Of a stretch of DNA of 60,768 nucleotides, positions 2,704 to 60,768 are shown in pieces. The DNA lies in the NCBI GenBank assembly GCA_041661275.1, contig JBAZUU010000006.1, positions 1 through 60,768 of the forward strand, written 5' to 3'. The first letter of the stretch is position 1, and each line of letters opens with the position of its first letter. The translations under genes and the position numbers were made by a program. The notes under the pieces were generated by a model. It ran no database searches, was not told the DNA's origin, and saw only the letters and a list, made by a program, of their open reading frames with translations. The DNA is from Parcubacteria group bacterium (lineage in GTDB: Bacteria > Patescibacteriota > Minisyncoccia > Moranbacterales > UBA2206).

Positions 2704-3591
2704 ATGAAACCAAAAACAATAATAAATACCACTGAAGAATTTCTAACCTGGCTACAAGTCGAAAGACGATTTGCTAAAAGTTCCATCATCAGCTACTGCT
2801 CCCGGCTGAAAGGAATTGTACGCGATATAGGTGACTTGGAGATAAAAAATATTACCTCAGAGCACATTTTCAAACTCAAATCCATTCTGTATGAGAGGCA
2901 GAATTCAGAGGTTTTTACTGGAGTGGTGATGGCGGCCATCAAGGGGCTGCTGCTCTACGCCAGAGATCAGCTGAAAATTCCTATTCAGATTGACCCAGGC
3001 ACAATAACTATTCCAAAACGCAAACGGAAAGACATAATATATCTAACAGTGGACGAAATCAACCGGTTCAGGAACAGTATCAATATTAATACCAGCTGCG
3101 GATTGCGCTTTAGAGCTTTAGTAGAAACGCTCTTAGGTTCCGCCTGTCGCATCTCAGAAGCACTAAGCCTCAATCGCGACTCTATTTCTCCCATTGAAAA
3201 AGAAGCGAGGATAATCGGTAAAGGTGGGAAAGAAAGAGTCCTATATTTCAACGAAGATTCGCTATACTGGATCAATAAATATTCAGAAACAAGGACGGAC
3301 AATAATCCATCTCTTTTTATAACCACCGGAAAATCACCGCGTCAGCTCCGCAATCAGGATTTGAGCCGGTATTTCAAGCACCAGCGGTCGGTTGCAGGTA
3401 TTTCCAAAAAGGTCACGCCGCATATTTTAAGGCATACGGCAGCTACTACGATGGCGATGAATAACTGCTCTGCCATATTTATAAAGGAGATTTTAGGTCA
3501 CAGCCGACTCCAGACCTCAATTGATTATTATATATCCCTCGCTGACAAGCAAAAGGTGAAACAAGCACATCAAACTTTTCTAAAATATTAG
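2704..3591 (+). CDS. Tyrosine recombinase / phage-type integrase
   Basis: It has an N-terminal SAM-like core-binding region and a C-terminal catalytic domain with the motifs ARISEAL, HILRHTAAT and LGHSRLQTSIDYY. Confidence 0.9.
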   Translation: MKPKTIINTTEEFLTWLQVERRFAKSSIISYCSRLKGIVRDIGDLEIKNITSEHIFKLKSILYERQNSEVFTGVVMAAIKGLLLYARDQLKIPIQIDPGTITIPKRKRKDIIYLTVDEINRFRNSININTSCGLRFRALVETLLGSACRISEALSLNRDSISPIEKEARIIGKGGKERVLYFNEDSLYWINKYSETRTDNNPSLFITTGKSPRQLRNQDLSRYFKHQRSVAGISKKVTPHILRHTAATTMAMNNCSAIFIKEILGHSRLQTSIDYYISLADKQKVKQAHQTFLKY

Positions 3592-4441: not shown

Positions 4442-5407
4442 ATGTTTCCAATTTTCTCTGACAATTTAATCTTATCCCAGTGTTTTGACCGGCTTTTTGA
4501 GAATATCGAAGCGGATTGTTCGCTGTCTCAAAATTCCGTAGAAACATACAAAAGGATTTGCCCAAGGATTATCCAATTCTTCGGAGATATAAACATAAAG
4601 AAGCTGGATGCGCGGATGATTACCGGCTATAAGCAATTTCTCAATCGGCCAAGCCAGAAAAAGGAAAGATTGAGCGCGACATATAAGAATCAGCACCTGA
4701 CGTTGCTCAGGATACTCCTGAAATTTATTAAAGAAAAAGAGAACATAAAAGCGATGGATTATACGCTGGTTACTAAATATAAGGTTTCTGTCAAAGAGGT
4801 TGAGTTTCTGAATGAATCAGAGTTATCTAGACTGATGAATTACCCCAGCGACAAAACTATTACTGGTTGTCGAATGAGAGCATATCTTGAAACTTCAATT
4901 TCTACCGGCTGTCGGTTGACAGAAATAAGAAATTTGAAAATAGCCGATATCGATTTTGAAAATGGATCCGCCAATATCAGAACAAAAGGCGATAAGCCTC
5001 ATACGATTTTATTCAACAAATCATCATTGGAAGCGATTAAGAAATATCTGGATATGAGGAAAGACAATCACCAGAATCTATTCGTAACCGCCATGCCTCA
5101 TCCTAAACCTTGGCAGGGCAATGACATCGAGAGAAGTCTCCGGATGATTGGGAGAAAATTGAAACTCAGGAAGAATCTCAGGCCTCATTTATTACGGAAA
5201 TCAGCCGCGACGATTTTATACAAGAATAATGTTCCCTTGGGCGTGGTGCAGAATTTTTTAAACCATGCCTCGGCCAGAACCACCCTCTTACATTATCTTG
5301 GAAACTCAAATTTTCAGGAGCTGGAAAGAAATCACCGAAGAGTTATGGATAATCTGAATTTTAAAGATAAGACAGATTTATCTGGAGAGGAGGTGGAATT
5401 ACAATGA
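4442..5407 (+). CDS. Tyrosine recombinase / integrase (second copy, divergent)
   Basis: Motifs: GCRLTEIRNL, HLLRKSAAT and LNHASARTTLLHYL. Confidence 0.85.
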   Translation: MFPIFSDNLILSQCFDRLFENIEADCSLSQNSVETYKRICPRIIQFFGDINIKKLDARMITGYKQFLNRPSQKKERLSATYKNQHLTLLRILLKFIKEKENIKAMDYTLVTKYKVSVKEVEFLNESELSRLMNYPSDKTITGCRMRAYLETSISTGCRLTEIRNLKIADIDFENGSANIRTKGDKPHTILFNKSSLEAIKKYLDMRKDNHQNLFVTAMPHPKPWQGNDIERSLRMIGRKLKLRKNLRPHLLRKSAATILYKNNVPLGVVQNFLNHASARTTLLHYLGNSNFQELERNHRRVMDNLNFKDKTDLSGEEVELQ

Positions 5408-53834: not shown

Positions 53835-55304
53835 ATGAAAAAATATCTTTTTATTTTAGTTTTTTTAGGAATGCCTTTTCTAGCATTTCCTTCTTTTGTT
53901 TTTGCCCAAGACTATGATATTTATGTAGATTCTAGTTATTCTGGTGATGATTCCGATGGCAGTTCGGGAAAGCCGTTTGCAAAATTAGACAAGGCAGCAG
54001 AAAAAGCGATGGAAAATTCTTCCGGTTCGCGTGATATTTATGTTAGAAATGGCACTTACGGGGAAGCGAAAATTGGCAGTTCGGTCAAACTTTTTGGCCA
54101 GAGCAAAAAGGTGAAAATAAAAGGAACTCTTGCTATGTCTAACGGAACACAACTGGATAACTTGACGATTTTTGACGGGTCGCCGGCAATTTTGGCTGAG
54201 AAGAATGCTGATGTGACGATTAAGGATTGCGATGTCGAAGGTTTTGGCGGTATTGGTATTCAGGCGAGTCCTGGAAATGGAAAAATAATTGTCAAAAATT
54301 CCGTCATTCATGGAGGGTCTGGCAAGGGATTTTATATCCAGGAAGGGAGAAAAATGGAGATAACAAACAATAGTATTCACGACAATAAAGAAGAGGGTCT
54401 TGACGTGAGAGCTAGGACAAGTGGGATCATTTCCGGTAATGAAATTTATGGTAATAGCGAAAGCGGGATAGAGTTCATTATTGGCAGTTCTAAATTGCAA
54501 ATAACTGGGAATACGATCAAAAGTAACGGTGCCAGCGCCATTGCTAGTCAGTTTTATTCCGGAGCGAAAAAAGACGGAAAGATTATAATCAAAGGGAATG
54601 TTCTAAATAAAAACAGGAAATATGCTCTGGATTGCGCCATTCCCAGTGGAGGCGACCCGCCGCCGAATTATTGGACAGAGTCTATAGATTTTTTAGAAAA
54701 CACCATTGAAGGAAATAGGATTGATCCTGTCAGCGACTTCTGCCATATCATAGAAGCGGTCGACAAGGAAAAGGAAGAAGAGGATAATAAAATTTCGGAA
54801 ATCAAAGATGAAAATGTTAATGAAAATTTTATCGAAGAAAATCTTGATGTAGCTGTTGAGGAAGAAGTGAAAATGACGCTGGAAAGTATTTATGAAGCAC
54901 AAAGCAAAAGAGAGCCGGTGCTAAACGAGCACATCTCTATGCTTGAATCGAGGAGTTCAGTCCTTGTTTTTTTGATAGGCCCCGACTATTCTAATATAGA
55001 TATCGCCTGGAAAAAAATAGAAGAAATGCAAGTTGATAGGCAAAGACTTTTTGAGTTGCTTGTGAAGACTAAAACCGAAGATAATAAGGAATTGCTGAAA
55101 GAGAAAATAGGCGAGATGAGTGATATCATCAACGCGAAAAAAAGTATAACATTAGAACAAAGAAATAAGTTTAGTCTTTTTGGCTGGGTTTCAAAAATGC
55201 TCTTGACCCCGTCAGAAATCGGTCGAATTTTTCATTCAGTCAGATTTCTGCAAGATGGAGCAAGCAAAGCGCGCGACATTTCGCCACAACGTATCCGAAT
55301 ATGA
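53835..55304 (+). CDS. Secreted right-handed parallel beta-helix repeat protein with a C-terminal coiled coil
   Basis: It has a signal peptide and repeated GNxI/NxI beta-helix turns. The last ~20 codons run into the repeat array and may not be native. Confidence 0.65.
   Translation: MKKYLFILVFLGMPFLAFPSFVFAQDYDIYVDSSYSGDDSDGSSGKPFAKLDKAAEKAMENSSGSRDIYVRNGTYGEAKIGSSVKLFGQSKKVKIKGTLAMSNGTQLDNLTIFDGSPAILAEKNADVTIKDCDVEGFGGIGIQASPGNGKIIVKNSVIHGGSGKGFYIQEGRKMEITNNSIHDNKEEGLDVRARTSGIISGNEIYGNSESGIEFIIGSSKLQITGNTIKSNGASAIASQFYSGAKKDGKIIIKGNVLNKNRKYALDCAIPSGGDPPPNYWTESIDFLENTIEGNRIDPVSDFCHIIEAVDKEKEEEDNKISEIKDENVNENFIEENLDVAVEEEVKMTLESIYEAQSKREPVLNEHISMLESRSSVLVFLIGPDYSNIDIAWKKIEEMQVDRQRLFELLVKTKTEDNKELLKEKIGEMSDIINAKKSITLEQRNKFSLFGWVSKMLLTPSEIGRIFHSVRFLQDGASKARDISPQRIRI
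55247..55290. repeat. Partial F module (right arm only), the first unit of the inverted-repeat array
   Basis: TCTGCAAGATGGAGCAAGCAAAGCGCGCGACATTTCGCCACAAC matches the right half of the F modules at 55950-56005 and 60600-60644. Confidence 0.7.
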
Positions 55305-55313
55305 GAGGTTTGA

Positions 55314-55532
55314 CTATTTTTGCCTGAATTCATCTTCCGTCAAATTGGCTTGGCGCAAAATTGATTTAAAAGTCCCAAAAGGAATTTCTTTCCGTCCAGC
55401 CGGAACTATCACGGTCAATGTTGGGCTTCCGGTTTTCCTGAATTTGGCATGACTGCCTTTTTGTGAAATATAAACAAAGCCCCGTTTATGCAGGACTTTG
55501 ATGATGTCAGAAGATGAATATAATTTAGGCAT
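55314..55532 (-). CDS. hicA: Type II toxin HicA
   Basis: It has the KVLHKRGFVYISQKGSHAKF signature and is ~72 aa long. Confidence 0.85.
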   Translation of the reverse strand: MPKLYSSSDIIKVLHKRGFVYISQKGSHAKFRKTGSPTLTVIVPAGRKEIPFGTFKSILRQANLTEDEFRQK

Positions 55533-55743
55533 GACAGATAGATAGTTTTACAAGTTCCGGCTTTTCAATTTTGGTTACTTTTGGAACTTTAACATCATCA
55601 AAATACAATTCCAATGCTTCGTCTAAAGCGCATAACGCTTCCTTTTTTGTTTTACCAAAGCTGGAAACATCCACATTCAAACACTGGGCAACATAATAAT
55701 TTCCCTCTTTCCAGACTACACTTTTTAAATCAATTTTGCGCAT
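55525..55743 (-). CDS. hicB: Type II antitoxin HicB
   Basis: It has a HicB-like N-terminus (WKEGNYYVAQCLNVDVSSFGKTKKEAL) and overlaps hicA by 8 nt. The start was chosen at the internal ATG. Confidence 0.75.
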   Translation of the reverse strand: MRKIDLKSVVWKEGNYYVAQCLNVDVSSFGKTKKEALCALDEALELYFDDVKVPKVTKIEKPELVKLSICHA

Positions 55744-55884
55744 AAATTTATTGTTTCTATGACATAATACTGCCATAATGGCAAAAATATGTCAAATTTG
55801 CCTGCCTGCCTATGGCGGGGGTAAAAAATGAAATTCAAGTCTAGAAAATACAAAAGTGAATTTCATTTTTTCCTCATATTCGGT

Positions 55885-56005
55885 GTTGTGCGATGTGTCG
55901 CTGCACGTTTGTTAAGTTGGGCTTTGTTTGTTTCGCAGCCCAAATCGCATAGCTGCGCATTCTGCAAGATGGAGCGGAGCAAAGCGACGCGACATTTTGC
56001 AGAAC
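55885..56005. repeat. F module (imperfect palindrome)
   Basis: The arm GTTGTGCGATGTGTCGCTGC pairs with GCGACGCGACATTTTGCAGAAC around a ~79 nt loop. The loop 3' half is shared with the module at 60523-60644. Confidence 0.75.
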
Positions 56006-56117
56006 GTTAGGCATATCCGAAGTTTTTCTGAAGCGTAGCGTAAGAAAAATTTGGGAGAGAAAATTTTGCTTTCCTTAATCTATTATAAAGTGTAAAATTT
56101 TTGAACCGGATATGCCT
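56006..56117. repeat. Variant E module (E'), cargo-free
   Basis: GTTAGGCATATCCG ... CCGGATATGCCT inverted ends occupy the same position relative to the F arms as the E ends do. Confidence 0.6.
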
Positions 56118-56118
56118 T

Positions 56119-56163
56119 GTTATGTGATGTAAAATTCTTTCTTTTTTCTTTTTTTAACTTTGC
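56119..56163. repeat. Left arm of a 45 bp inverted repeat (F' module) enclosing 3.6 kb of cargo
   Basis: The reverse complement of GTTATGTGATGTAAAATTCTTTCTTTTTTCTTTTTTTAACTTTGC matches 59804-59848 with about 4 mismatches. Confidence 0.8.
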
Positions 56164-56186
56164 TTTTATTCTAAATGATAAATAAG

Positions 56187-56248
56187 TTTTTTTGTTTTTG
56201 ATTTTGGGCAGAGGGGTAAGGGGTGAATGCCCAAAATCAAAAACTCCT
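56187..56248 (+). repeat. ~60 bp direct repeat, left copy
   Basis: TTTTTGTTTTTGATTTTGGGCAGAGGGGTAAGGGGTGAATGCCCAAAATCAAAAACTCCT. Its partner is at 57784-57842. Confidence 0.8.
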
Positions 56249-56253
56249 CATTG

Positions 56254-56973
56254 TCATTTTAATATTCGATAAATTTCAGCAAGCAAAACATCGAGATCAT
56301 TTGTAAAATCTACTTGATTAGAATTTGGTAAAACTTCTTTTTTCCTAATCTGTGTGTGTAAATGTGAATCAGAAATTTTTCGCGATGAATTTTCTAAATT
56401 TTTCATTGAATCCTTAAAGCTTTTGCTACCAAAGTTATTAGCCACCTCAGTAAATGTATTTTTGTCAAAAACAGGCGGAACATGGTCAATAATTGCACGA
56501 ACAAGCATTGCGGTTGATAAGTATAACTCGTAATGGAAGGTTGTGTTTAACTCTTCACAAAATCGTATTAGCTTTGAGATATCGAATAATGTGACCCTAA
56601 GTGATTTCAAATCTGCAATCCTTTTAGGATTAACATAATTATATGTACCAGCTTTAGACGTTGCTTTTTTGGTTGTAATTTTTTTGGCGGAATTTAAGGT
56701 TAATTGATTACGTCCATTTTCCATCAGCTTATATCCTTCTGAATTTTTATGCGTCGCCTTTTTATCGTTTTTTAGAGCATATTCAACACCTTGACGCGTA
56801 ACGGTAATGCCTAAATTATTAATCAAGTAATCCGTAATTTCTTTTGTGGAAAATCGTTGTTTATCTTCGCGCTCCAATTCGCTCATCACCCAAAACACCT
56901 TATGTTTTAGTGCCTTAGTATTGTGAGGGTTAATTTTGTCAATGGATTGATACATTTTATTTTCGTATAACAT
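56254..56973 (-). CDS. Hypothetical protein with an N-terminal wHTH-like region. The C-terminal helical domain has an RKISDSH (Rx5H) motif
   Basis: Intact ORF overlapping its upstream partner by 17 nt. Assigning the C-terminus to HEPN is speculative. Confidence 0.45.
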   Translation of the reverse strand: MLYENKMYQSIDKINPHNTKALKHKVFWVMSELEREDKQRFSTKEITDYLINNLGITVTRQGVEYALKNDKKATHKNSEGYKLMENGRNQLTLNSAKKITTKKATSKAGTYNYVNPKRIADLKSLRVTLFDISKLIRFCEELNTTFHYELYLSTAMLVRAIIDHVPPVFDKNTFTEVANNFGSKSFKDSMKNLENSSRKISDSHLHTQIRKKEVLPNSNQVDFTNDLDVLLAEIYRILK

Positions 56974-57631
56974 ATTCCCATCTAGCCTTACCTTTGCCGG
57001 TGGATGGTATTCTCTTTAATATTTTTTTATTAGAAACAAAACCAGTTCTCACCGTTGCATCAATGACACGATCGTCGTGAAATTTTACTTCTTGTTTTAA
57101 TTTTTTTGAAATTTCTTGTATCGTTTTAGGCGTGTCGAAAAACCCACCATTAACTAATTCCTGTATGTCTTTCCCTATGCCTTTTGTTGATTGGCGTTTG
57201 CTCTTGCCTGGTGCATTTTTCATCTTTGCGCCATTCTCTTCTCTGGTGGAAAGTTCGTCAAGAAAAATTTCAATTTTATGAGGCATAATCTGATAAACGC
57301 CCCGCTCTGTTTTTTTTGCAAAACCAGATTTTACAATCTTTGAAAGTCGGGAGCCTATCGCCTCCGTGCTTTCCTGAACTATTTTTTGTATCTCTGAAAG
57401 GGTGGCATTTGATTGTATGTTGCTGTCAAAATTATGAGCTATGAACCTAACAGCTAAGCAAAGTTTTATTTTTTCATCAGATGGAAGATTGTGATTTTCT
57501 ATTAAAATCTGTCCATTCTTAGCAATTTTTGCATATTTTAAAGCTTTTTCAGCATATTTTTGCACCTTTTCTTTTGTATACTCGTCCTCATCAACAATGA
57601 AGCTATTTTTTATATCTTTTTCATTTGTCAT
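56957..57631 (-). CDS. Hypothetical protein with two winged-helix-like segments
   Basis: GFAKKTERGVYQI and KGKARWEYVIRK resemble wing regions. No enzymatic motif seen. Confidence 0.45.
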   Translation of the reverse strand: MTNEKDIKNSFIVDEDEYTKEKVQKYAEKALKYAKIAKNGQILIENHNLPSDEKIKLCLAVRFIAHNFDSNIQSNATLSEIQKIVQESTEAIGSRLSKIVKSGFAKKTERGVYQIMPHKIEIFLDELSTREENGAKMKNAPGKSKRQSTKGIGKDIQELVNGGFFDTPKTIQEISKKLKQEVKFHDDRVIDATVRTGFVSNKKILKRIPSTGKGKARWEYVIRK

Positions 57632-57783
57632 AATCGTTTAATTAGTGTTAGATGGATAATACACTAATTCTAAGGCAATACATAATTATTGTCAAGTATT
57701 AAATTTTATATTATATGTAATATGAAAAAAACAGCTTGTTTTATGCTGTTTTTATCTTATAAATGTGTCTAAGAATATTTGAT

Positions 57784-57842
57784 TTTTGTTTTGGTTTTTG
57801 AGTAGAGGGGTCAGGGGCGAATGCCCAAAATCAAAAACTCCT
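57784..57842 (+). repeat. ~60 bp direct repeat, right copy
   Basis: TTTTTGTTTTGGTTTTTGAGTAGAGGGGTCAGGGGCGAATGCCCAAAATCAAAAACTCCT. Confidence 0.8.
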
Positions 57843-57923
57843 TAATTAGGTTATACATCATTTGTGTATTTCTAGAAAGTTGTGTATACTAGAGTTAGCA
57901 GAGAAATATTTATATATACAACT

Positions 57924-58820
57924 ATGAACATTATTTATAATGAAGATTGCATGAGTGGTCTAGACAAGATTGATGAAAATTCAATTGATGTTTGTATTAC
58001 TGACCCACCCTATAATTATGAATTCATCGGGCATAAATGGGATTTTGAAGAAATTCAAAGACGAATAGGCCGTGTCCAGAATTCTAGCACCCTCGTTAAG
58101 CATATTCCCTATGGAAGTGGCCTCGCTGGCGGAGTAAGAAACCCGAGGTGGTACGAAAAAAATGCAAAGAATGTAAATGATTATAGAGACTGGACTCAAA
58201 AATGGGGCGAGAAAGTTTACAGAGTACTTAAGCCAGGGGCTTATATTTTAGTATTCAATAGTTCACGAACTATCGCTCATGTGCAAGTAGCGCTTGAACA
58301 AGTGGGTTTTTATGCGCGAGATATTATTGTTTGGAAAAAAAATGCAGGGATTCCGAAAGGAATAAATCTAGCAAAGAAGTTAAAAAAAGATGGCTACAAA
58401 GACGCTGACAAATGGGAAGGTTGGCATAGTTGTTTTAGAAATGAATGGGAAGCGATTGCATTGCTTCAGAAACCTCTTGAAGAAAATTATCCAACTACAA
58501 TTAAAAAATGGGGTGTTGGCGTATTGCATACTGTAAATGGTTCAGGGGGCTTTAAATCAAATGTATTTGAAAATATTGCAAGAGGTGAAAAACAGGATTT
58601 TAACATGCATTGCACTGTAAAACCAACATCTCTCATAAAACAACTCATCGAGTTGACTGTACCACTAGAAAAAGACAGGATAATACTCGATCCTTTTATG
58701 GGTTCAGGCACCACCGCAGTTGCAGCACTAGAATTGGGAGTTAAATATTTAGGTTATGAGATAGTACCTGAATATAAGAAAATAGCAGAAGATAGAATCG
58801 CGAAGCTAAAAAGTACATAG
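57924..58820 (+). CDS. DNA methyltransferase (N6-adenine or N4-cytosine, beta class)
   Basis: It has an N-terminal DPPYN motif IV and a C-terminal FMGSGTT motif I. The ATG at 57924 is preferred over 57882. Confidence 0.85.
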   Translation: MNIIYNEDCMSGLDKIDENSIDVCITDPPYNYEFIGHKWDFEEIQRRIGRVQNSSTLVKHIPYGSGLAGGVRNPRWYEKNAKNVNDYRDWTQKWGEKVYRVLKPGAYILVFNSSRTIAHVQVALEQVGFYARDIIVWKKNAGIPKGINLAKKLKKDGYKDADKWEGWHSCFRNEWEAIALLQKPLEENYPTTIKKWGVGVLHTVNGSGGFKSNVFENIARGEKQDFNMHCTVKPTSLIKQLIELTVPLEKDRIILDPFMGSGTTAVAALELGVKYLGYEIVPEYKKIAEDRIAKLKST

Positions 58821-58825
58821 AATTA

Positions 58826-59383
58826 TTACAATCTTGAAATATGATGTTCTTCTTTTACTCGTAGTAGATATTTTTCTATATCAAAGCCAGTTTTTTCTTC
58901 AATGTAATTTAAACAATCCTTTCCTACAAAAAGCTGCCAACCACCAACCTTACATGCTGTTATTGCAGCAGAAAGATTGTCGTCTCTTAAAATTAACAAA
59001 ACAGGATTATATCCCTGGTCTCTTAAAAATTTTCCATACTTTTTAAATTTTTTCAGGGTGCCAGAATCACCAGACCCAATTCGATATTTTGTATCAATTG
59101 CATCTTTACCAATAAATAAATCAGTTGGCTCATCGCCCTCTATTCTTAGCCCTGGCTTAAAATCAGGACAATTTAGCTCAGCCACTTTAGTTACCAATAA
59201 CTGCCAACACATCCCTAGCTCTCTTCCCCAATATTGTCTATTTTCTCGCTTTAGCTCTGGCGTGATATTAAAAACATCCATCAAAATATCATGGTCATTG
59301 TTCTCATTAATATAGACTTTTCCAGTGAAAGAATCTTGATATTGTTTAAGTATTTTTTTTAAATTATTCTCTAGATCATTCAT
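58826..59383 (-). CDS. Putative type II restriction endonuclease
   Basis: It converges on the methyltransferase and lies directly downstream of a C-protein gene. GDEPTD ... IDTKYR could be a PD-(D/E)xK site. Confidence 0.55.
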   Translation of the reverse strand: MNDLENNLKKILKQYQDSFTGKVYINENNDHDILMDVFNITPELKRENRQYWGRELGMCWQLLVTKVAELNCPDFKPGLRIEGDEPTDLFIGKDAIDTKYRIGSGDSGTLKKFKKYGKFLRDQGYNPVLLILRDDNLSAAITACKVGGWQLFVGKDCLNYIEEKTGFDIEKYLLRVKEEHHISRL

Positions 59384-59384
59384 A

Positions 59385-59600
59385 TTAAAAATCTTTAAAA
59401 AAATCCGACAACTTTATCTTTAATGCGTTAGCAACTTTTTCAATATTTTCTAAAGTGATATTTTTTTCAGCTCTTTCTATCATTCCAATATAGGTACGAT
59501 GAACACCTGCCCTAGAAGCAAGTTCTTCTTGAGAAAGCGTTTGCTTATGTCGCTCTTCTCTCACTTTATTTCCAAATTTTTCTAATGTTGTTTTACTCAT
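59385..59600 (-). CDS. XRE-family HTH controller (C) protein
   Basis: It is a 71 aa HTH_3-type protein (LSQEELASRAGVHRTYIGMIERAEKN) located 1 nt upstream of the endonuclease gene. Confidence 0.8.
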   Translation of the reverse strand: MSKTTLEKFGNKVREERHKQTLSQEELASRAGVHRTYIGMIERAEKNITLENIEKVANALKIKLSDFFKDF

Positions 59601-59614
59601 AATATAATGATGTA

Positions 59615-59671
59615 ATGCTAACTATAGTATAGCTAATTGCTAATTTTAGTGCTACATACTATAGTTAGCAT
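59615..59671. promoter_or_regulatory. C-box-like operator
   Basis: A perfect 16 bp inverted repeat, ATGCTAACTATAGTAT ... ATACTATAGTTAGCAT, lies immediately upstream of the C gene. Confidence 0.6.
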
Positions 59672-59803
59672 AAATAAAAACTCGCTTTTTGCGAGTTGAT
59701 AAATTTAAAAATCGTTTTTTACTGCCCCTTTGTGGGCAGAAAAAACACCTTATTACCCCTATATAAATAGATAAAAAAACTTATTTTTCCTTATTATAAA
59801 AAA

Positions 59804-59848
59804 GCAAATTTAAAAAAAGAAAAAAGAAAGAATTTTATTTCACATAAC
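59804..59848. repeat. Right arm of the 45 bp inverted repeat (F' module)
   Basis: GCAAATTTAAAAAAAGAAAAAAGAAAGAATTTTATTTCACATAAC. Confidence 0.8.
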
Positions 59849-59981
59849 GTATCCGAATATGAGAAGTTTTTGCCCGCTTCCATATTAATATTAAATGAAG
59901 AAAAGGGCAAAAATTTGGGTAAAAAATGAAATTCAAGTCCAGAATATATAAATGAGAATTTCATTTTTTCCTCATATTCGG
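59849..59981. repeat. E module, cargo-free (133 bp, MITE-like)
   Basis: It has the inverted ends GTATCCGAATATGAGAAG ... CCTCATATTCGG. Two internal hairpins are present: TTTTTGCCC/GGGCAAAAA and AAAAAATGAAATTC/GAATTTCATTTTTT. Confidence 0.8.
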
Positions 59982-60013
59982 TGTTGTGCGATGTCAAAAA
60001 TATTTTTTCACAA

Positions 60014-60460
60014 TTACACCAATAATAAATCTGGGTATTTTGGATCGGCTTCCGTTGTTAGTTCTGTTAACTCAAGATTTACTTTATCTTCAAAACTTAC
60101 TGGCAGGACTATGAAATTAACATCTTCCGGCCCAACTCTCATGCCAAATTCCAGGTCAGTAGTAAATTCATGTTTTAGATACTGACTATTATTACCTTTA
60201 AGGAAGCCGATAAAAAATTTGGTCGGTTTCTCGCTTGTGGCCTTCATAACTGCAATATTATTCCAAGCCTGAATCACTTTCTCTCGCTCGGAACTTTCTT
60301 TAATTTCCGAAGCAGACTCCTGTCCAGGCACTCCCTTTACGGAAACAAAGGAAATGTTTGGCCAGTTCTCATCACCGACCAATTTTTTTTCCATTTTGTA
60401 GTTTCTCATGTTATTTAAATTTAAAAAGTTAATTGTGAAAAAATATTTTTGATTTCGCAC
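60014..60460 (-). CDS. Hypothetical protein
   Basis: Intact ORF lying between two copies of the GTT(G/C)TGCGATGT core. No motif recognised, and the start is ambiguous. Confidence 0.45.
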   Translation of the reverse strand: MRNQKYFFTINFLNLNNMRNYKMEKKLVGDENWPNISFVSVKGVPGQESASEIKESSEREKVIQAWNNIAVMKATSEKPTKFFIGFLKGNNSQYLKHEFTTDLEFGMRVGPEDVNFIVLPVSFEDKVNLELTELTTEADPKYPDLLLV

Positions 60461-60522
60461 AATGCGCAGCTATGCGAAGTCCCGACGCTTCGTTGGGGTT
60501 TGGGCACTGCCGCATAGCGGGA

Positions 60523-60644
60523 GTTCTGCGATGTGTCGCGTCGCTTCTGTTAAGATAAATTAAATTTATCTCACCGCCCAAATTCGCATAGCTGCGCATT
60601 CTGCAAGATGGAGCGGAGCAAAGCGACGCGACATTTTGCAGAAC
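60523..60644. repeat. F module (imperfect palindrome)
   Basis: GTTCTGCGATGTGTCGCGTCGC pairs with GCGACGCGACATTTTGCAGAAC as 7 + 11 paired positions around a 4 nt mismatch. Confidence 0.8.
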
Positions 60645-60768
60645 GTATCCGAATATGAGAAGTTTTTTCCCGCTACATTATAAAATATGAATTGTAGAAA
60701 AGGGCAAAAATTTGGGTAAAAAATGAAATTCAAGTCCATTATATATATAAAAGAGAATTTCATTTTTT
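60645..60768. repeat. E module, truncated by the window end
   Basis: It has the same left end and internal hairpins as 59849-59981. Confidence 0.75.

Follow-up and report, generated by a model that had tools for sequence, protein, structure and literature searches.

Positions 55246-60768 of the window, the 60,768-nt stretch of DNA analysed here, probably hold an orphan, integron-like array of gene cassettes, carried on the chromosome of what is probably a CPR bacterium. Repeats far above chance occur in this interval only, where the original prediction had described two interlocking palindromic modules, E and F. The motifs AACGTATCCGAATATGAGA, GCGACGCGACATTTTGCAGAAC and TTCTGCAAGATGGAGC each have three copies in the window, all beyond 55246 (0.00-0.07 expected), and matches to an E profile searched with nhmmer against the 60.8-kb window were restricted to 55280-60765. 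Neither motif counts nor nhmmer placed an E copy in the remaining 55 kb ahead of the array.

Read along the plus strand, the array starts at its distal end with the truncated right half of an F-type (ORF-less) cassette (55246-55290). This fragment ends in CATTTCGCCACAAC, has about 88% identity with both 55960-56007 and 60599-60646, and overlaps the final codons of a beta-helix gene (53835-55304), whose ORF continues into the adjoining E1 (55288-55887). E1 is an E-family element (AAC...GTT) that carries the toxin-antitoxin genes hicA (55314-55532, minus strand; Pfam HicA, 2.2 × 10−16) and hicB (55525-55776, minus strand) in its P2 loop. Its P2 stem is preserved despite hicAB (55308-55324 pairs with 55780-55796); the P1 arms lie at 55295-55305 and 55873-55883, and P3 at 55823-55871. 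One related locus likewise has hicAB in P2, but with another P1 type (L128), and in another a homologous hicAB (84% identity) forms an ordinary cassette (L090). Next to E1 lies F1 (55885-56005), an ORF-less cassette body of 121 nt that runs from GTT-GTGC-GATGT to CATTTT-GCAG-AAC between inverted terminal arms. It is followed by E' (56003-56121), a diverged E-family element (nhmmer, 76.5 bits; a row in alignment A3) whose P1 arms, TAGGCATATCCG and CGGATATGCCT, are unlike those of E and complementary to each other. Together with the adjoining arm, E' is 93% identical to its counterpart in L016 and 85% to that in L004.

The large cassette body, F' (56119-59848), is a 3.6-kb segment enclosed by inverted arms, as first described, but these arms measure 75 nt at 80% complementarity (56119-56193 and 59774-59848) and not 45 bp. 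Its cargo comprises two ORFs without known function (56254-56973 and 56957-57631, both minus strand), a type II N4/N6 DNA methyltransferase (57924-58820, plus strand; Pfam N6_N4_Mtase, 2.5 × 10−38; PADLOC MTase_II, 3.1 × 10−48), a putative restriction endonuclease with a weak RE_ApaLI match (58826-59383, minus strand) and an HTH controller protein (59385-59600, minus strand; Pfam HTH_3, 1.4 × 10−15). After E2 (59846-59985), a canonical empty E (nhmmer, 122.9 bits), comes an arm-bounded module that had been overlooked. This cassette body (59983-60463) has inverted arms of 33 nt at 94% (59984-60016 and 60430-60462) around a 131-aa ORF (60014-60409, minus strand), which is a gene call in L001/L143 and had no match in Pfam, NCBIfam or PADLOC. 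Also overlooked was E'' (60461-60525), a short family member of 60 nt that the nhmmer E profile missed; counting it, there are ten junctions rather than eight. Its sequence, read directly, is AAT-GCGCAGC-TATGCGAAGT-small hairpin-TTTGGG-...-GCATAGC-GGGA-GTT, which retains the TATGCGAAGT and TTTGGG blocks and a P1 pairing of GCTATGC with GCATAGC. The array continues with F2 (60523-60644), an ORF-less cassette body of 122 nt whose arms, like those of F1, span 24 nt at 88% complementarity, and with E3 (60642-60768), a third E copy (76.4 bits) that has its own P2 loop and is cut by the window end. The empty E, the hicAB-loaded E and both F copies thereby stand as originally proposed.

E belongs to a large family of elements of 60-210 nt with three covarying helices and a set of fixed blocks (AACGT, ATAT, GAAGTTTT, AAAATTTGGG, GAACC and TGTT). 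We identified the family in more than 130 contigs (130 loci), chiefly CPR and DPANN metagenome-assembled genomes (MAGs), a collection that was gathered by the E pattern, with the ascertainment bias that this brings, and in which many loci come from MAGs with uncertain binning. The E-array system is widespread in ultra-small bacteria and archaea, and no description of it turned up in the literature searched. Copies in ~22 other MAG contigs have an exact 19-mer in common with E2 and are more than 85% identical to it. Of 129 elements, 13 carry cargo within E itself, in the loop of P2 or P3, and chimeric E copies have mismatched P1 arms (L006, L007a).

Across 32 diverse E copies, 94.7% of cells were paired (78.3% in shuffles) and 23 pairs showed double changes (14.4 in shuffles), values that were reached by none of 500 shuffles. 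The E strand has 82 G.T pairs versus 16 A.C pairs, and one invariant G.T adjoins AAC/GTT. As DNA, E2 is predicted to fold into a three-way junction (P1, P2 and P3) closed by AACG/TGTT at −30.0 kcal/mol (z −7.2), and the complement of the E strand folds slightly worse (−27.3 kcal/mol). E may fold as single-stranded DNA, of which covariation in an inverted repeat is by itself no proof. The P2 and P3 hairpins are A/T-flanked and have the look of bidirectional terminators.

The arrays obey consistent rules. All E copies point in one direction in each of the 68 multi-copy loci, and cassette ORFs mostly lie on the strand opposite E (70 opposite, 8 same, 14 ambiguous), with a median cargo of ~650 nt. 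Cargo ends are complementary over 4-75 nt. The 4-nt boxes matched at 3.12 of 4 positions across cargo (perfectly in 44 of 77 cases), compared with 1.83 across E and 1.73 at random, and for the next 15 nt the figures were 9.8 matching positions across cargo against 4.9 for E and 4.7 by chance. Both the variable 4-nt box and the long "F" arms therefore have their pairing partner across each cargo and not across E, which fits the integron pattern. Because the arms around one E are not complementary whereas those around one cargo are, insertion of E into a pre-existing palindrome is excluded. Homology between genomes ended within 10 nt of AA|C in 11 of 91 cases (~0.4 expected) and at the GTT edge in 2 (~1 expected), so that breakpoints cluster at one E edge only, again in line with an integron reading.

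In 23 loci we found a homologous IntI/XerA-like tyrosine recombinase of 270-290 aa, encoded in all 23 on the E strand, 3' of the array and transcribed away from it. Its best solved relative is VchIntI4 (4.6 × 10−43). On NF040815, the NCBIfam XerA model (cut-off 220), the family reaches 224-253 bits, and on TIGR02249, the integron-integrase model, 196-243 bits; it is without the ~43 aa that match the IntI-specific I2 region, which earlier studies tie to single-strand recombination (PMC4792948, PMC7790495). Between the recombinase gene and the array, 60-133 nt ahead of the recombinase start codon, is a conserved attI-like palindrome that also has a second TTATGCGAA repeat. The array always ends at this site, with one or more E copies upstream of it and never any downstream, and ~11 of 25 such sites are without a recombinase. 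No array-type recombinase gene was found in the window or within ~6 kb past the array. The original prediction saw no recombinase in the window, which holds for the array; 50 kb from it, however, lie two Xer-like tyrosine recombinase genes (2704-3591 and 4442-5407) that score 50-62 bits on the integron-integrase model and fall outside the array-linked family.

A second assembly of the same genome (L001) is 99.9% identical to the window over 15.3 kb and then diverges in the last cassette. F2 is there the final cassette ahead of the attI-like site, and the left half of its loop differs from that in the window. Past the same AAC, the window continues with E3 and L001 with the attI-like site (TCTTTATTATGCGAAT...TATTATGCGAAGC). 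As L001 has the attI-like site at the position of E3 and no recombinase gene following it, the window array is best described as orphan; with the site kept and the neighbouring gene gone, it would be frozen or served in trans. Structural polymorphism, which the original prediction had named as a check, is thereby seen at the attI-proximal end, and the difference could come in part from the assembly of mixed strains. The proposed likeness to an integrase-free integron array or attC cluster is supported and extended, since related loci have a recombinase, an attI-like site and co-oriented cassettes.

Read on the minus strand, each cassette consists of TT-NNRY-GAAAT, cargo and ACATC-RYNN-AAC, followed by a single E-family element whose last letter is G. 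In the mechanism that we propose, E, E' and E'' would take the role of attC, with the hairpin forming on the strand opposite the cassette ORFs (the window plus strand). This hairpin would have an AACG/TGTT base, a 5' bulge of 1-3 nt, an 11-bp P1 with an ATAT core and the terminal hairpins P2 and P3, and when folded it would mimic the double-stranded attI-like site, ATTTC-RYNN-AAC-(5-6 nt)-TATGCGAAGT. F is no element in its own right but a cassette body, whose complementary ends lengthen the stem below E. The recombinase encoded just past the attI-like site in related genomes would exchange one strand at AA|C and insert cassettes at the attI-like site, and cassettes would be excised by E x E recombination; we infer both the cleavage position and the acting enzyme.

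Part of this evidence would also suit hijacking of a Xer/dif system. The array enzyme would then be the cell's dimer-resolving XerA-type recombinase and the attI-like palindrome its dif, where cassettes pile up as small IMEX-like integrative elements, using a folded hairpin that mimics dif as does the single-stranded CTX phage genome in Vibrio. The enzyme scores above the XerA cut-off and is without the IntI insert, and the attI-like site is an 11-6-11-type imperfect palindrome directly adjoining the recombinase gene, as the sites of difSL/xerS and difH/xerH adjoin theirs; the many attI-like sites without an adjacent gene would suit a gene located elsewhere. We nevertheless regard this as unlikely, given that the window genome has two other Xer-like genes outside the array-linked family, which the integron-integrase model scores far below that family, and that the mostly single-ORF, ~650-nt, co-oriented cassettes without replication or transfer genes look like integron cassettes and not IMEX genomes. 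More doubtful still is an exchange of modules between double-stranded sites, as with pdif in Acinetobacter. The E halves would then be two inverted recombinase sites of 28-31 bp, and E interiors and F interchangeable modules that move between sites on different replicons by ordinary double-strand recombination. Read linearly, the left half of E does resemble the attI-like site (ATTTC-RYNN-AAC-(7-8 nt)-ATATGNGAAGT), both compartments carry cargo, chimeric E copies exist, and the recombinase is without the domain tied to single-strand substrates. Breakpoints, however, cluster at the AA|C edge and not at the GTT edge, and the E types have spacers unlike one another's and unlike that of the attI-like site, which would leave a complete two-strand exchange without homology. 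Nor does a purely double-stranded site model require complementary cargo ends or P2/P3 covariation with a G.T bias.

The strong structural covariation of E and its terminator-like hairpins could alternatively reflect structured RNA or terminator/insulator repeats, as REP, ERIC and BOX are thought to be, with transcribed E stabilising or terminating the mRNAs of an ordinary gene island and an incidental link to the recombinase. This seems very improbable: no Rfam family matched at E-values up to 5, the cassette ORFs run antisense to the strand that pairs better, and the uniform recombinase orientation, the attI-like site and the AA|C breakpoints would go unexplained. Least credible is a set of dispersed MITEs, REP/BIME repeats or a shufflon, that is, non-autonomous transposable palindromes or segment-flipping inversion sites, a reading that is largely refuted. 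It draws on the palindromic ends of E and F, on near-identical 133-nt copies across many genomes and on the alternating junction motifs, which had suggested shufflons or BIMEs to begin with. The apparent strict alternation of the 40-bp site arises because E and each cargo have palindromic ends; mutually inverted whole E units occurred in none of the 68 loci, and no sign of inversion was seen. Neither target-site duplications nor a RAYT, Rci or transposase gene consistently close by were found, the window's other 55 kb holds no copies, and arms pair across cargo and not across E.

Compared with known systems, E resembles ERIC, BIME and REP elements as a highly conserved, imperfect palindrome of similar size between genes. 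Unlike these it is not dispersed but linked to a recombinase and a primary site, uniform in orientation and accompanied by cargo-linked arms. Acinetobacter plasmid pdif modules, in which XerC/XerD sites of alternating orientation surround resistance and toxin-antitoxin modules, share the alternating junction motif, the small modules (toxin-antitoxin pairs included) and cargo on either side of a site. E arrays differ in their one-edge breakpoints, directly oriented whole units, conserved and structured E interiors, and chromosomal location with a dedicated-looking recombinase and primary site. CTX-phage-type IMEX integrate at dif through a folded single-stranded attP and strand exchange by XerC only. 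Similarly, the folded hairpin of E would imitate a Xer-type core site in its double-stranded form, the array recombinase is Xer-like and without the integron insert, and one-strand exchange would tolerate non-homologous spacers; E units are, however, single-gene cassettes without phage or replication genes, in long co-oriented arrays.

The window array also resembles a CALIN, the IntegronFinder category for a cluster of attC sites lacking an integron integrase, in that it has cassettes and five or more copies of the site but no integrase close to them. Its sites are attC-like, with ends that resemble the attC consensus but, as first noted, fall short of it, and the second assembly still has an attI-like site where the array ends. 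Integrons include a sedentary chromosomal type and archaeal integrons (Ghaly et al. 2022, PMC9668308); the literature searched yielded none reported from CPR. E arrays share with integrons a tyrosine recombinase gene transcribed away from the array, an adjoining double-stranded primary site, and short, mostly single-ORF, co-oriented cassettes that each end in an imperfect palindrome bounded by AAC...GTT. Further parallels are the complementarity within a cassette of the variable bases at AAC and GTT, one crossover point at the AAC/GTT edge, a better-folding strand opposite the ORFs, ORF-less cassettes, and cargo rich in toxin-antitoxin, restriction-modification and GNAT-type genes. The IntI-defining domain and canonical attC geometry, by contrast, are absent: the recombinase is without the ~43-aa insert of the I2 helix region, and E has neither canonical extrahelical bases nor a symmetric unpaired central spacer but a 5' bulge, an invariant G.T, an 11-bp P1 stem and a three-way junction with fixed blocks. 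E arrays also have conserved ATTTC and GATGT pentamers outside their R-box equivalent, and inverted arms of 24-75 nt on the cassette ends, which an integron-type site does not need. Finally, E can hold cargo inside the site, in the P2/P3 loop, as integrons do not, and the hosts of E arrays are mainly CPR and DPANN.

The repeats that the original prediction had read as an array are borne out in substance. Array repeats are confined to the final 5.5 kb and absent from the rest of the window, far above chance expectation: three diagnostic motifs occur three times each, all past position 55246, with 0.00-0.07 occurrences expected. An nhmmer profile of the E family, the structured repeats of this array, matched the window only at 55280-60765. 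The array opens with a truncated F-type end (55246-55290) within the last codons of a beta-helix gene, followed by E1 with hicAB inside it (55288-55887), the ORF-less F1 (55885-56005), the diverged E' (56003-56121) and a large segment of about 3.6-3.7 kb with 75-nt inverted arms (56119-59848), which carries two ORFs of unknown function and a methyltransferase/endonuclease/controller set. Further along are E2, a canonical empty E (59846-59985), a segment (59983-60463) whose 33-nt inverted arms enclose a 131-aa ORF, E'', a short 60-nt E-like hairpin (60461-60525), the ORF-less F2 (60523-60644) and E3, which is interrupted by the window end. The window thus contains five E-family sites in 5.5 kb. 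The predicted layout stands in substance, with two corrections: the arms of the large segment measure 75 nt rather than 45, and there are ten junctions rather than eight, two modules having been missed.

Several features of the cargo and its surroundings were observed alongside this layout. The beta-helix/NosD-like gene (53835-55304) runs about 20 codons into array sequence (region 55240-55304) and its stop codon lies inside E1, so its present C-terminus is repeat-derived. The large segment holds two directly oriented copies (56189-56248 and 57783-57842) of a 60-nt element that contains a perfect 17-bp hairpin (GTTTTTGATTTTGGGCA...TGCCCAAAATCAAAAAC) and divides the cargo into a two-gene part and a restriction-modification part. 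The same element also adjoins E'-type sites in L004, L011 and L016, three of the related loci in other contigs. The 224-aa ORF (56957-57631) has a weak PADLOC match to the AbiEi antitoxin (E 7e-4, residues 69-119) and its 239-aa partner has no PADLOC match; together they may form a two-gene defence or toxin-antitoxin module. When the 131-aa ORF was searched for in other contigs, only the ENA contig of a second assembly of the same organism matched. At its opposite end, the window begins inside a 16S rRNA gene (1-1340), which is followed by a LAGLIDADG-type ORF (1629-2102; motif GLVDGEGSF, judged by eye) and by two adjacent Xer-like tyrosine recombinase genes (2704-3591 and 4442-5407) with a 242-aa ORF between them.

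To describe the spread of the E family, we searched other genomes for its sequence. In the species-representative genome collection, the exact 19-mer AACGTATCCGAATATGAGA was matched in 25 stretches, 22 of which extend as near-identical 133-nt E copies; the other three (L015, L019 and L022) were discarded as chance matches whose similarity ends at the 19-mer. The 22 copies are in MAGs labelled Magasanik-, Moran-, Gracili-, Peri- and Saccharibacteria, Paceibacterota and others. A looser fixed-block pattern was found in at least 119 stretches, which among the matches listed were mostly CPR and also included Nano-, Woese- and Pacearchaeota, several methanogen bins, Omnitrophota, KSB1 and others. 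The nhmmer profile gave E-family matches in 130 loci. Only two matches were found in 2.9 million viral contigs and none in PLSDB plasmids or INPHARED phages; E elements are therefore not typical of viruses, plasmids or phages. An Rfam 15 scan of the region returned nothing at gathering score, and with E-values up to 5 allowed it gave only chance-level microRNA and snRNA matches.

Alignment of 32 diverse E copies revealed the invariant blocks AACGT, ATAT, GAAGTTTT, AAAATTTGGG, (GA)ACC and TGTT, flanked by ATTTC and GATGT. The three helices of the folded E (P1, P2 and P3) vary in sequence across these copies and keep their pairing. P1 occurs as CCGAATATGAG, TAGGCATATCCG, GCCGATATGCG, TGCGTGTATCTG and other variants, P2 is variable in length and P3 has at least three unrelated sequence types. 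RNAalifold predicted 35 pairs, 24 of them with compensatory changes. In the named structure, 94.7% of cells pair, compared with 78.3% when shuffled and 36-53% when partners were slid, and double changes are found at 23 pairs versus 14.4 in shuffles; none of 500 shuffles reached the observed values. On the E strand, which is the plus strand in the window, G.T pairs number 82 and A.C pairs 16, and the G.T adjoining AAC/GTT is invariant. Folded as DNA, the E strand reaches -30.0 kcal/mol (z -7.2) versus -27.3 (z -5.7) for its complement. Members of the family range from about 60 to 210 nt with AAC/GTT boundaries, and their geometry combines a 1-3 nt 5' bulge with the invariant G.T; canonical extrahelical bases and a symmetric spacer were not seen.

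Some E copies and their neighbours have further sequence peculiarities. Chimeric copies in L006 (567-723) and L007 (1656-1821) combine a 5' P1 arm and P2 of the canonical type with P3 and a 3' P1 arm of another type, joined at the conserved AAAATWTGGG block; their P1 cannot pair because its two arms belong to different types. The motif TTCCTTAWT, whose complement resembles a ribosome-binding site (AAGGA), recurs in P2 loops, P3 loops and the arm right of many E copies, and in the window it lies in the P2 loop of E2 (59874-59890) and the P3 loop of E' (56060-56075). Upstream of E in L003, L010, L011 and L014, ORF-less F-like cassettes take the form of small hairpins whose stems covary and whose loops are GAGCGAAGCG; as a DNA mini-hairpin, GCGAAGC is unusually stable. 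In L129, ACTTCGCATAACTCCCGCTATCCGAA is present in three identical copies (2272, 3185 and 5987) on the strand opposite the E-like match of that locus.

The orientation of E units proved uniform wherever several occur together. This was the case in all 68 loci with two to six E copies within 8 kb, and the median spacing between E units is about 650 nt. The strict alternation of a 40-bp site, as originally described, therefore reflects the two palindromic ends of each unit and nothing more. Among 92 single-gene-size cassettes, the longest ORF was opposite E in 70 and shared its strand in 8, with 14 ambiguous. As the ORF is opposite E in 70 of the 78 decidable cassettes, the reverse complement of E follows the ORF. 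Cassettes in the window obey this rule, with the methyltransferase gene as the exception.

The boundaries of the cassettes were also apparent from their ends. The 4-nt boxes by GTT and by the next AAC pair across the cargo, with a mean of 3.12 out of 4 and 44 of 77 perfect, compared with 1.83 across E and 1.73 at random. The adjoining 15 nt average 9.8 matches across the cargo, compared with 4.9 over E itself and 4.7 for random pairs. Since the ends are complementary across the cargo, with arms of 24-75 nt, F is a cassette body with complementary ends. Homology between genomes ends within 10 nt of AA|C, the proposed crossover edge of E, in 11 of 91 cases (about 0.4 expected), and at the GTT edge in 2 of 91 (about 1 expected). 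In L013, the AA|C edge is where two neighbouring cassettes meet, one related to L016 and the other to L071. Cargo can also reside inside the site: 13 of 129 elements have 440-2075 nt between the two complementary arms of P1. The P2 loop, its stem intact, is occupied by hicAB in the window and also in L128, whose P1 is of another type, and a homologous hicAB forms an ordinary cassette in L090. Other genes are found in the P3 loop within 55-60 bp stems, some with their own promoter.

A Pfam tally of 112 ORFs neighbouring the repeats included two tyrosine recombinases, and a phmmer search with one of these identified homologues in 23 loci. In all 23, the recombinase gene is on the E strand, directly 3' of the array. 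Seen from the cassette-coding strand, the recombinase is transcribed away from an array of ORFs each followed by a site, which is the layout of an integron. These array-linked recombinases are 261-293 aa long with complete catalytic residues, and their closest solved relative is the Vibrio integron integrase IntI4 (VchIntI4, 4.6e-43), followed by XerA and XerD. At 224-253 bits they pass the cut-off (220) of the NCBI XerA model, named "tyrosine recombinase/integron integrase". On the TIGR02249 integron-integrase model they score 196-243 bits, under the cut-off of 265, with the match split into an N-terminal and a C-terminal part. The alignment to IntI4 leaves out IntI residues 183-241, the integron-specific insert region.

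Within the window, no recombinase gene with the IntI-specific domain was found, and its two Xer-like genes score 50-62 bits on the integron-integrase model and are not of the array-linked family. Homology retrieval yielded distant relatives of the array-linked recombinase in many phyla, mostly at 36-45% identity. The E profile had no matches at these relatives, which speaks neither for nor against arrays there, since it also overlooked a diverged E-like array in L193 (3290-3580), a Firmicutes HGW-8 MAG, where the blocks GAACTTTT and AAAAGTTGGG are situated upstream of a homologous recombinase. The system thus probably extends beyond CPR and DPANN. CPR contigs often stop just upstream of the recombinase gene, so E repeats appear to break assemblies.

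In about 20 of the 23 recombinase loci, a palindromic attI-like primary site is located 60-133 nt before the recombinase start codon. It reads ATTTC-RYNN-AAC and then T(C/G)GTT(T/A)-(T/C)TATGCGAA(G/C)T, forming an imperfect palindrome, often with a second TTATGCGAA about 45 nt beyond. This site always terminates the array, with at least one E upstream and none downstream; the recombinase gene is next to it at about 14 sites and absent at about 11. As linear sequence, the 5' portion of E (ATTTC-RYNN-AAC, 7-8 nt, ATATGNGAAGT) resembles the attI-like site. According to our fold model, the folded E would present the ATTTC...AAC/GTT...GATGT duplex and the ATAT-core P1 duplex in attI-like order. Counted from the sequence, the second TTATGCGAA lies about 10 nt upstream of a TATAAT in L004 and L119; in L112 it is present and TATAAT is absent. 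Such an arrangement suggests that the recombinase could bind over its own promoter.

The second assembly of this organism (ENA ERZ27249449, contig k141_368673; L001 and L143) matches the window at 99.9% identity across 15.3 kb, and the differences are concentrated at the array end. E'' differs by one base, the left half of the F2 loop has about 15 substitutions, and divergence is total past the shared ...GCAGAAC at 60644. From this point the window continues with E3, whose P2 loop is unlike that of E1 or E2, and L001 continues with TCTTTATTATGCGAAT...TATTATGCGAAGC, a full attI-like match including the second repeat. Beyond that site L001 has, on the opposite strand, an ORF of 168 aa, followed by housekeeping genes, with no recombinase gene or remnant found in the roughly 6 kb past the array. 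The original prediction of an array without an integrase therefore holds for the window and for these 6 kb. The structural polymorphism it had asked about is likewise present: the two assemblies differ in cassette content where an integron-like platform would add cassettes, a mixed-strain assembly being a possible alternative. No inverted isoform was seen between the two assemblies. A search of genome_contigs with the F2 loop and one of JGI metagenomes with the E3 loop gave no matches and no third copy.

Other mobile or repetitive systems could be considered for a palindromic array of this kind. REP/BIME elements occur as dispersed copies with a RAYT, and MITEs as dispersed copies with target-site duplications and a cognate transposase. 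Here, no copies were found outside the array in 55 kb, and transposase families are not enriched among the 112 neighbouring ORFs. MITE insertion into existing palindromes was rejected as well, the arms flanking one E being unrelated and those flanking one cargo complementary. Shufflons consist of inverted sites around segments seen both ways round, together with an Rci-type recombinase. The proposed likeness to a shufflon or BIME did not hold, as E units are never mutually inverted and cassette ORFs have a strong strand bias.

Xer-dependent systems were compared as well. The pdif sites are 28-bp XerC-6-XerD sites in alternating orientation, each of them a module boundary, and a comparison of the junction with the dif/pdif consensus, made by eye only, gave a partial match in which ATTTCGTATAA equals a pdif XerC arm. 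Pdif modules nonetheless failed as an explanation, since only the AA|C edge of E acts as a boundary, and there was no PLSDB plasmid match; with one crossover point in each unit, a symmetric model of the pdif type is disfavoured. The main rival is a CTX-type system, whose hairpin integration at dif is a mechanistic cousin of the E arrays. Under it, the array-linked recombinase could be the housekeeping Xer, with the attI-like site as its dif.

The array, its orientation, the primary site and the crossover features support the original suggestion of an integron or attC cluster, and functionally the closest system is the integron. We are confident that the architecture is integron-like. The full mechanistic statement, an orphan integron-like array with a related recombinase acting at AA|C, is somewhat more likely than not. 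More tentatively, E arrays, an I2-less IntI/XerA-like recombinase and a palindromic primary site could together form an unrecognised class of gene-capture platform, common in CPR/DPANN and with diverged forms elsewhere (e.g. L193), whose cassettes, bearing near-identical 133-nt sites, would pass between phyla and possibly domains, and which may be a missing intermediate between Xer/dif and integrons, using hairpin-type cassette sites without the I2 helix.

CPR and DPANN genomes are tiny. A platform dedicated to cassette capture would account for the way these organisms gain and swap genes for defence, toxin-antitoxin systems and surface modification, and would indicate a route for gene flow across phyla and perhaps domains. 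Screens requiring the IntI-specific domain, such as those in the IntegronFinder-based studies consulted, would leave these recombinases outside the integron integrases. The literature searched contained no report of integrons in CPR, and full-text searches turned up no account of arrays of this type in CPR or DPANN, which is absence of evidence only. The E motifs are absent from the supplement of the archaeal-integron paper (PMC9668308).

How E arrays compare with integrons can be considered feature by feature. An integron consists of co-oriented cassettes, typically one ORF and then a site, with a divergent integrase and, between them, attI as the point of cassette entry. Co-oriented cassettes and the crossover features are found in E arrays, as are, in related loci, a divergent recombinase and a primary site between it and the cassettes. 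Integron crossover takes place at G|TT of R', and the R'' and outer R' boxes of one cassette are complementary; in E arrays too, a single cassette supplies both boxes of a site. The attC site, 57-141 nt long, is an imperfect inverted repeat (R''-L''...L'-R') in which AAC and GTT are conserved; its bottom strand is recognised in a folded form that has extrahelical bases and a central spacer left unpaired. The folded E would mimic the attI-like site as attC mimics the core site. Canonical attC geometry was not seen in E, and the cassette-end arms of 24-75 nt far exceed an R box. Unlike classical integrons, E arrays can hold cargo inside the site and include chimeric copies. CALINs comprise two or more attC sites in a stretch of a few kb, with no integron integrase nearby; the five E-family sites of the window would fit this definition if they count as attC. 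Existing attC screens may already have counted some E arrays as CALINs.

The enzyme also differs. Integron integrases are tyrosine recombinases with an IntI-specific additional domain, the I2 helix region around patch III, and the array-linked recombinase lacks this insert. In PMC9668308, the additional domain of Messier and Roy is cited as defining, and PMC4792948 and PMC7790495 tie the I2 region to single-strand recombination. In published work, the I2 helix is held to have turned a Xer-like enzyme into a single-strand recombinase. A survey of tyrosine recombinases (PMC8138268) lists a Xer-like group, "Cand", and describes the integron insert as not fully conserved. A natural I2-less enzyme paired with hairpin-type cassette sites would allow a direct test of the ancestral integron state.
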